A stretch of 1,610 nt of DNA from Escherichia coli (GCF_003334405.1 NZ_QOWM01000042.1), one strand, 5' to 3'. Counted from the first letter of the stretch, positions 1-1,610 are shown. Program-made: numbers and translations. Notes: generated from the sequence alone by a model not told the origin.

Positions 1-1610
1 ACGCTGGCGCGGCTGTGGGGGGCGCTGCCGCCGGATATCCGGTTAAGCCCGCATCTTTACCTGGCGACCAACAGCGCACAGGGGCCGTGGTGGATACTGG
101 GGTGGTCTGAGCGGGTGCCGGGTGCTGAGGACGTACTGCCAGCGCCGCTGCCGCCGTACCGGGTGCTTACCGGGATGGCGGACCGCTTCGGGCGGACGCT
201 GACGTACCGGCGTGAGGCCGCCGGTGACCTGGCCGGGGAAATCACCGGCGTGACGGACGGTGCCGGGCGGGAGTTCCGTCTGGTGCTGACCACGCAGGCG
301 CAGCGTGCGGAAGAGGCCCGCACCTCTTCGCTATCTTCTTCTGACAGTTCCCGCCCTCTCTCAGCCTCAGCGTTCCCCGACACACTGCCCGGTACCGAAT
401 ACGGCCCCGACAGGGGTATCCGCCTTTCGGCGGTGTGGCTGATGCACGACCCGGCATACCCGGAGAGCCTGCCCGCTGCGCCACTGGTGCGGTACACGTA
501 TACGGAAGCCGGTGAACTGCTGGCGGTATATGACCGCAGCAATACGCAGGTGCGCGCTTTCACGTATGACGCGCAGCACCCGGGCCGGATGGTGGCGCAC
601 CGTTACGCGGGAAGGCCGGAGATGCGCTACCGCTACGACGATACGGGGCGGGTGGTGGAGCAACTGAACCCGGCAGGGTTAAGCTACCGCTATCTTTATG
701 AGCAGGACCGCATCACCGTCACCGACAGCCTGAACCGGCGTGAGGTGCTGCATACAGAAGGCGGGGCCGGGCTGAAACGGGTGGTGAAAAAAGAACTGGC
801 GGACGGCAGCGTCACGCGCAGCGGGTATGACGCGGCAGGAAGGCTCACGGCGCAGACGGACGCGGCGGGACGGAGGACAGAGTACGGTCTGAATGTGGTG
901 TCCGGCGATATCACGGACATCACCACACCGGACGGGCGGGAGACGAAATTTTACTATAACGACGGGAACCAGCTGACGGCGGTGGTGTCCCCGGACGGGC
1001 TGGAGAGCCGCCGGGAATATGATGAACCGGGCAGGCTGGTATCGGAGACATCGCGCAGCGGGGAGACAGTACGCTACCGCTACGATGACGCGCACAGTGA
1101 GTTACCGGCGACGACAACGGATGCGACGGGCAGCACCCGGCAGATGACGTGGAGCCGCTACGGGCAGTTGCTGGCGTTCACTGACTGCTCGGGCTACCAG
1201 ACCCGCTATGAATACGACCGCTTCGGCCAGATGACGGCGGTTCACCGCGAGGAAGGTATCAGCCTTTACCGCCACTATGACAACCGTGGCCGGTTAACCT
1301 CGGTGAAAGACGCACAGGGCCGTGAAACGCGGTATGAATACAACGCCGCAGGCGACCTGACTGCCGTTATCACCCCGGACGGCAACCGGAGCGAGACACA
1401 GTACGATGCGTGGGGAAAGGCGGTCAGCACCACGCAGGGCGGGCTGACGCGCAGTATGGAGTACGATGCTGCCGGACGTGTCATCAGCCTGACCAACGAG
1501 AACGGCAGCCACAGCGTCTTCAGTTACGATGCGCTGGACCGGCTGGTACAGCAGGGCGGCTTTGACGGGCGGACGCAACGTTATCATTATGACCTGACCG
1601 GAAAACTCAC
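1..1610 (+). CDS. rhs: Rhs-family YD-repeat protein, conserved core region (partial at both ends; internal fragment of a much longer ORF)
   Basis: Seen in sequence: frame 1 (position 1 = first base of a codon) is open through 1608 with no stop codon; I translated it codon by codon. Translation includes ...RYRYDDTGRVVEQLNPAGLSYRYLYEQDRITVTD..., ...TRSGYDAAGRLTAQTDAAGRRTEYG..., ...VRYRYDDAHSELPATTTDATGST..., ...TRYEYDRFGQMTAVHREEGISLYRHYDNRGRLTSVKDAQGRETRYEYNAAGDLTAVITPDGNRSETQYDAWGKAVS...MEYDAAGRVISLTNENGSHSVFSYDALDRLVQQGGFDGRTQRYHYDLTGKL. Established knowledge: this YD/RHS repeat signature defines Rhs/teneurin/TcC-type shell proteins, and the sequence matches my recollection of the E. coli-type Rhs core. 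Family-level symbol only; the paralog letter cannot be assigned from the core. True start and stop are outside the window. Confidence 0.93.
322..378 (+). other. Ser-rich low-complexity segment (TSSLSSSDSSRPLSASAFP) within the CDS; likely flexible linker preceding the YD-repeat region
   Basis: Seen in sequence: codons 322-378 translate to TSSLSSSDSSRPLSASAFP. The DNA here is a pyrimidine-rich tract (cacctcttcgctatcttcttctgacagttcccgccctctctcagcctcag) with T/A-ending serine codons (TCT, TCA), unlike the G/C-ending codons elsewhere. The linker function is inference. Confidence 0.5.
487..1608 (+). repeat. Array of ~17 degenerate YD (RHS) repeats, conserved at protein level, within the Rhs core CDS
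   Basis: Seen in sequence: consecutive units at approx 487-552, 553-624, 625-684, 685-780, 814-876, 877-942, 943-1005, 1006-1068, 1069-1137, 1138-1200, 1201-1263, 1264-1326, 1327-1395, 1396-1455, 1456-1515, 1516-1575, 1576-1608+. Each has an aromatic-rich start (RYxYD / YxYD / EYD) followed by G(R/D/Q)(L/V/M)(T/I/V). Unit boundaries are approximate. At nucleotide level the units are diverged, apart from short shared codon strings such as cgctaccgctacga. Possible additional RHS-like unit upstream at ~181-290 (FGRTLTYRREAAGDLAGEITGVTDGAGREFRL). Confidence 0.75.

Follow-up and report, generated by a model that had tools for sequence, protein, structure and literature searches.

The proteins of known structure closest to the sequence described here are two Rhs effectors, Pseudomonas aeruginosa Tse5 (8cp6) and P. 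protegens RhsA (7q97), both proven type VI secretion system (T6SS) substrates. In Tse5, the DUF6531 domain (residues 48-124) is the N-terminal plug, and the chain is cut between K47 and P48 (PMC10684867). The analyzed stretch, called the window below, comprises 1,610 nucleotides (nt) of Escherichia coli DNA (GCF_003334405.1, NZ_QOWM01000042.1). A preliminary description, made from the sequence alone, had placed it entirely inside the conserved core of an Rhs polymorphic-toxin gene. With high confidence, the window comes from the interior of an E. coli gene of the rhsD type (rhsD itself is long known), within the RhsD/E core subfamily, and codes for about the first 40% of the Rhs beta-cocoon wall.

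Placement of the window in rhsD

The features of the window are listed below, with amino acids (aa) numbered along the frame-1 translation.

1..1610, plus strand: part of the interior of the rhsD coding sequence (gene nt 460-2069, codons 154-690); neither start nor stop falls within the window
1..495 (aa 1-165), plus strand: N-proximal part of the Rhs shell after the plug, with degenerate or undetectable repeats and a low-confidence model; conserved in RhsA/B/C
322..369 (aa 108-123), plus strand: Ser-rich low-complexity stretch TSSLSSSDSSRPLSAS, containing a 5-residue insertion relative to RhsA/B/C
499..1610 (aa 167-536), plus strand: array of YD (RHS) repeats, from Pfam, TIGR01643, AlphaFold, Foldseek and phmmer
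989, plus strand: single difference from the rhsD of strain PigCaeca_1 (C in the window, A in PigCaeca_1; Ser330 versus Tyr)
1149..1274, plus strand: six differences from K-12 rhsD within 126 nt, five synonymous and one giving H425 versus R

A megablast search of complete E. coli genomes returned similar sequence in 3661 of 5426, i.e. two thirds of them, and a genome has a median of 3 such places; rhsD is a textbook gene. The best complete-genome matches, which carry the annotation 'rhsD: rhs element protein RhsD', are 99.9% identical over 1610/1610 bases. The rhsD of PigCaeca_1 shows 1 mismatch over 1610/1610 nt. At this site (989) C is also found in K-12 rhsD and in the core at the rhsE locus of strain FDAARGOS_772, and therefore the window has the common allele. 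With rhsD of K-12 MG1655 (b0497, NP_415030.1) the nucleotide identity is 99.6% (6 mismatches over 1610 bases), and the window starts at nt 460 (offset 459) of this 4281-nt gene. At all six sites the window shares its alleles with PigCaeca_1 rhsD and with the vgrG-linked rhsE-locus core of FDAARGOS_772; thus, K-12 is the odd one out, and the differences at 1149-1274 are allelic variation. Gene conversion from rhsA, rhsB or rhsC as the origin of this six-site patch was ruled out, as the alleles do not track those genes. In respect to the FDAARGOS_772 rhsE-locus core, the window is identical over nt 875-1330 and shows 37 mismatches elsewhere. Such a pattern would fit gene conversion or patchy recombination between cores of the D/E type, in which K-12 would carry an unusual patch. 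In general, rhsD is a known gene, the window lies at an ordinary allelic distance from the reference strains, and nothing in it is new; the preliminary description had rightly called this part conserved, structural and not itself novel, and it is near-identical to known rhsD.

The coding sequence is read in frame 1 of the plus strand over 536 codons (nt 1-1608, with 2 bases left over). It contains zero stops, exactly as the preliminary description had stated, while the remaining five frames contain 20, 23, 21, 18 and 7. In 20,000 mononucleotide shuffles, frame 1 was never free of stops (the shuffle mean is 15 stops), and the chance of a stop-free frame 1 calculated from base composition is 2.6e-7. 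The whole window has a guanine plus cytosine (GC) content of 64.5%, and the three codon positions have 65/52/77%, a coding pattern as for a GC-rich coding frame.

The frame-1 protein (aa 1-536) aligns end to end with positions 154-693 of the 1261 positions of the NCBIfam profile NF041261 (RHS_core, an equivalog model named 'RHS element core protein'). The fragment scores 1123 bits, which is below the whole-protein cut-off of 2000 because only this part of the profile is covered by the window. Full-length K-12 RhsD scores 2787.7 bits over positions 1-1261, above the same cut-off. The RHS_core match of K-12 RhsD spans aa 1-1258 and the window corresponds to aa 154-690, so the window does lie entirely in the conserved core. 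The comparison with E. coli Rhs cores suggested in the preliminary description thus gave both the end-to-end RHS_core alignment and near-full identity (99.9% for the best genome, 99.6% for K-12 rhsD).

The core subfamily was assigned by near-identity to the rhsD core together with about 22-25% divergence from the rhsA/B/C cores. The window is 99.6-99.9% identical to rhsD and 97.7% identical to the rhsE-locus core, and only 76.2-76.4% identical to K-12 rhsA, rhsB and rhsC at the nucleotide level (75% for the protein). Therefore, it belongs to the RhsD/E core subfamily. Wang et al. reportedly divided the E. coli Rhs cores, in 1998, into the A-B-C-F, D-E and G subfamilies. An even-step sample taken down the ranking of matches shows the D/E-type cores sliding from 99.9% to ~93%, followed by a jump to ~77% for the A/B/C-type cores. 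The truncated rhsE pseudogene of K-12 does not cover this section of the core.

Within the window, D-type and A/B/C-type cores diverge most in the Ser-rich stretch, which also holds their one indel of any size (a 1-residue gap lies nearby). The nucleotide identity to rhsA and rhsC falls to 52% in alignment columns 301-400, versus 65-91% elsewhere. The stretch is probably a variable surface loop, in a region of low model confidence. A terminator-like hairpin at 310-329 overlaps the start of this segment; such hairpins occur at chance level, and it is not taken as functional.

Repeats and fold of the encoded shell

The preliminary description had the frame encoding tandem YD repeats, and had proposed searches with PF05593 and the TIGRFAM YD-repeat models (here TIGR01643), which indeed returned many matches. 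Pfam RHS_repeat (PF05593) matches the frame-1 protein 12 times, with no other notable Pfam match. Eight of the matches have E<=1e-3 and span aa 212-525, one more is found at aa 167-204 (E 0.0014), and weak ones at aa 509-536 and 56-90 (E 0.61). TIGR01643 (YD_repeat_2x) matches seven stretches with an E-value of 8.7e-49 and 162 bits, versus a cut-off of 15.8. Multiple YD repeats are thus recognized by both families. YD or YN dipeptides occur 14 times over aa 177-530, the final seven at a spacing of 20-21 residues. No significant YD/RHS repeat match was found in aa 1-~165 (nt 1-495), where just the weak one at aa 56-90 is located. The YD repeats therefore take up about 70% of the window rather than its full length, and the tandem array described earlier holds at the protein level for aa 167-536 and not for the first ~165 residues. 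In the window DNA, Tandem Repeats Finder (minimum score 30) found no repeat, and the only direct or inverted repeats are two-copy matches of 14-17 nt, which reflect recurring codons of the YD repeats. The repetition is present at the protein level only.

A phmmer search of the PDB with the window protein gave Tse5 (E 1.7e-58, aa 137-533) and P. protegens RhsA (E 1.5e-51), followed by RhsP, the Rhs cores of Salmonella bongori and Advenella, Tse15, Tre23-Rhs, and the teneurins. An AlphaFold2 model was calculated from a shallow alignment of 5 sequences, with a mean predicted local distance difference test (pLDDT) value of 64.9. For aa 165-536 the pLDDT is 70-93, and ~35 consecutive beta-strands are arranged as hairpins; aa 1-164 have pLDDT below 50 and no confident model. 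In Foldseek, the model superposes on chain B of 8cp6 (Tse5) with E 1.5e-30, TM 0.59, and 33% identity over 406 columns, then on chain A of 7q97 (P. protegens RhsA, E 7e-27), and further on other Rhs cores of the T6SS, on teneurins, and on the BC components of Tc toxins. As modeled, aa 165-536 form a superposable antiparallel hairpin sheet of the beta-cocoon type.

The beta-shell named in the preliminary description is thus borne out in part. For the 3' 70% of the window the fold was tested directly, and the model of aa 165-536 that superposes on Tse5 and P. protegens RhsA points to it; for the 5' 30% (aa 1-164), a shell would be expected by homology alone. A reading of the sequence by itself can recognize an Rhs core, and here the window could be placed exactly, at rhsD codons 154-690, in the shell wall past the plug and with nothing unusual within.

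The rhsD gene and locus in near-identical genomes

The window itself comes without flanks, and the parts outside it were taken from near-identical genomes (K-12, with an RhsD of 1426 aa, and PigCaeca_1). The features of K-12 RhsD are as follows.

aa 2-29: weak PAAR-like N-terminus (PAAR_motif, E 0.098)
aa 46-123: DUF6531 (E 7.5e-19)
aa 1-1258: RHS_core match (2787.7 bits)
aa 1181-1258: Rhs_assc_core (TIGR03696) / PF03527, profile match
aa 1232-1257: DPMGx18DPMG autoprotease motif
about aa 1292-1411: C-terminal DUF4329 (E 3.2e-37), with an HTH...S...D motif

The Rhs-associated core, the DPMGx18DPMG motif and then DUF4329 are present in both the K-12 and the PigCaeca_1 genes. In phmmer, RhsD residues 48-175 (PVNPLLGAKVLPGETDLAL...) align with residues 1-124 of the cleaved Tse5 shell chain. 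RhsD N47/P48 (SGN/PVNPLLGAKVL) falls on the cleavage sites mapped by experiment in Tse5 (K47/P48) and P. protegens RhsA (H304/P305) (PMC10684867, PMC8765631). This alignment predicts a PAAR-like N-terminal fragment of ~5 kDa for E. coli RhsD. In the K-12 stretch (L002), RhsD aa 1-47/48 have the coordinates 4262-4402. A linear extrapolation from P. protegens RhsA would have put the plug and the N-terminal autocleavage site at the 5' end of the window, which was ruled out by the direct alignment: the cleavage is at 47/48 and the plug at aa 46-123, and therefore both lie upstream. As judged from these alignments, the window starts ~30 residues past the plug (DUF6531 ends at aa 123) and far upstream of the autoprotease. 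It is structural shell only, with no catalytic site, cleavage site or toxin. The informative parts of the locus (the toxin tip, the immunity gene, the orphan cassettes, and any vgrG) are all outside the window.

In PigCaeca_1 and K-12, rhsD follows ybbA-ybbP, and ybbC starts 40 nt past rhsD. The ybbC gene is annotated as encoding a PF15631 / YbbC-YhhH family protein, a family which we take to be Imm-NTF2-2, and is followed by ylbH, ybbD and ylbI. The ylbH pseudogene fragment (L001 13254-13940 in one stretch, L002 8950-9660 in the other) opens with an Rhs_assc_core match, at RHS_core positions 1169-1261, and continues into another C-terminus. By its sequence, ylbH appears to be a silent alternative toxin tip, of the type thought to swap in via recombination. 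The GC content is 61-69% through the core, 32-35% in the toxin tip and the downstream cassettes, and 35% in the upstream intergenic region, which is the classical Rhs picture. DUF4329 is the Tox-JAB-2 domain of Zhang et al. 2012, who give Imm-NTF2-2 as its immunity partner, marked E. coli only (PMC3482391). The toxin/immunity locus of the preliminary description is thus supported by the context in matching genomes (the DUF4329 tip, ybbC and the orphan cassettes), and cannot be read from the window itself. In practical terms, the window flags its source as E. coli or a close relative with a polymorphic-toxin locus.

A plasmid origin was dismissed, since the five matches in the plasmid collection are either E. 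coli records of megabase size or contigs that are small and non-mobilizable. Two Klebsiella oxytoca 'plasmid' records, NZ_CP069916.1 (19 kb) and NZ_CP069926.1 (5 kb), carry a 99.4% identical rhsD and an rhsB-type core. These small non-mobilizable records have the look of contigs from the E. coli chromosome that were misassigned or are contaminants.

By homology with solved T6SS Rhs effectors, the YD-repeat hairpins of RhsD would spiral into a closed shell. The shell would enclose the C-terminal toxin, which varies between rhs genes and here would be DUF4329/Tox-JAB-2, and the conserved DPxGx18DPxG aspartyl autoprotease would cut the toxin loose inside. At the other end, the N-terminal PAAR-like peptide and the DUF6531 plug may seal the shell and mount the protein on the VgrG spike for contact-dependent delivery. 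Immunity of the producer would come from the ybbC product (Imm-NTF2-2), encoded downstream, and the orphan C-terminal cassettes past ybbC may permit swapping of the toxin via recombination. T6SS delivery, as seen in the related effectors, is the most likely mechanism for RhsD.

Several observations weigh against parts of this picture. No complete E. coli genome among the 5426 of the collection is 100% identical to the window. For the source strain, the toxin tip, the immunity gene and the place in the chromosome (rhsD or a further D/E-type copy) are predicted from near-identical genomes. The PAAR match at the N-terminus of K-12 RhsD is weak (E 0.098). In PigCaeca_1, the annotation within 9 kb of rhsD includes no vgrG, hcp or other T6SS gene, and none is found in the K-12 stretch, which reaches ~4 kb upstream of rhsD and 5 kb downstream. 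The genetic linkage expected of a T6SS-delivered Rhs effector is thus absent at rhsD in both strains, and K-12 is not known to have a T6SS. A search of the literature found no experiment on RhsD toxicity or YbbC immunity.

These observations bear on several alternatives. An intact gene could work without a T6SS, e.g. by regulating growth inside the cell in a toxin-antitoxin-like manner, and not serve as a delivered weapon. This is unlikely, even though neither vgrG nor T6SS genes are linked to rhsD, and rhsD has remained open in K-12, which is not known to have a T6SS. It would also agree with an in-silico study of enterohaemorrhagic E. coli (EHEC), in which rhsA-D are orphans outside the vgrG islands (PMC7216683), and with Salmonella Rhs elements, reported as type II toxin-antitoxin modules (PMC7043789). 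However, the PAAR-like peptide, the DUF6531 plug and the aligned cleavage site make up the apparatus by which T6SS Rhs effectors are delivered. In addition, a near-identical core directly follows vgrG in FDAARGOS_772: at its yncH-rhsE locus (L007 6366-12783), a D/E-type core of 97.7% identity lies 68 nt downstream of a gene annotated 'type VI secretion system tip protein VgrG', with 'RHS element protein dsORF-h1' and a pseudogene of an ISAs1 transposase coming after the core. One core family is therefore both T6SS-linked, at this locus, and an orphan, at rhsD. The content of the window has no bearing on this question. Nor does it lend any support to the view, which we hold to be very doubtful, that the rhsD shell has been kept nearly unchanged at a vgrG-free locus, in lineages like K-12 without a T6SS, for the sake of a T6SS-independent role. 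Such a role may be toxin-antitoxin-like growth control, as for the Salmonella Rhs elements, or may concern phage encounters. In a set of phage INSeq screens, rhsD::Tn mutants were modestly enriched in every one (T6, T2, R3, U115, P2, 8S, EC35, EC14), which the authors dismissed as background, without follow-up (PMC7414163).

The fragment could also derive from another D/E-type paralogue, such as the vgrG-linked rhsE-locus gene, or from a gene-conversion mosaic, and not from ybbP-rhsD-ybbC. The median of 3 matching places per genome leaves room for such copies, and the rhsE-locus core of FDAARGOS_772 (97.7% identical) matches the window base for base from nt 875 to 1330, a span that takes in all six sites that differ from K-12. 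This origin is nevertheless very improbable: among the matches listed, every one at least 99.3% identical is annotated rhsD, both such loci inspected (PigCaeca_1 and K-12) sit between ybbP and ybbC, and the rhsE-locus copy has 37 mismatches versus 1 for the best rhsD. There is next to no chance that the open frame is incidental to the high GC content, with an antisense open reading frame (ORF) or a non-coding element as the true feature. On the minus strand, ORFs of 168 aa (57-563) and 138 aa (679-1095) are present, and one minus-strand frame has just 7 stops. However, the few antisense stops arise because the third codon position of frame 1 is 77% GC, and the ORFs were dismissed as genes, being by-products of this composition on the opposite strand. 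Frame 1 is the sole stop-free frame, and it matches curated protein families with E-values down to 0, on which the antisense alternative already fails. The RefSeq records examined annotate no antisense gene, a search of all Rfam families on both strands of the window gave nothing at E<=1, and the single promoter-like and single terminator-like site in the window are at chance level. The Chi site GCTGGTGG does not occur in the window. The window is thus best read as an internal part of the rhsD gene, coding for shell wall.

Comparison with described Rhs and YD-repeat proteins

The protein encoded by the window differs from E. coli RhsD (K-12) in 1 aa (H425 versus R) of 536 residues, in the same reading frame and register, and the window departs from rhsD by allelic changes only (6 relative to K-12, 1 relative to PigCaeca_1). 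E. coli RhsA, RhsB and RhsC have the same architecture as the window protein, with a collinear alignment and the same YD-repeat register, but they belong to another subfamily: about a quarter of the positions differ, and a 5-residue indel is located in the Ser-rich loop.

Tse5 and P. protegens RhsA share the beta-cocoon fold and are some 32-33% identical to the window protein over ~400 columns. With the full RhsD gene they also have in common the cleavage-site motif at the N-terminus, the DUF6531 plug and the DPxG autoprotease. They are distant orthologues at best, and their toxin tips differ (Tse5 carries a pore-former, RhsD carries DUF4329/Tox-JAB-2). P. protegens RhsA also has prePAAR and transmembrane regions, both lacking in RhsD. 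Delivery by the T6SS is proven for these two effectors, whereas for RhsD it is suggested by homology with them. The YD-repeat shell fold is further shared with the BC components of Tc toxins (TcdB2-TccC3, YenBC) and with the teneurins, which were found by Foldseek with E-values of 1e-12 to 1e-18. Their identity is only 11-17%, and they have other plug domains, delivery systems and biology (PMC8765631).

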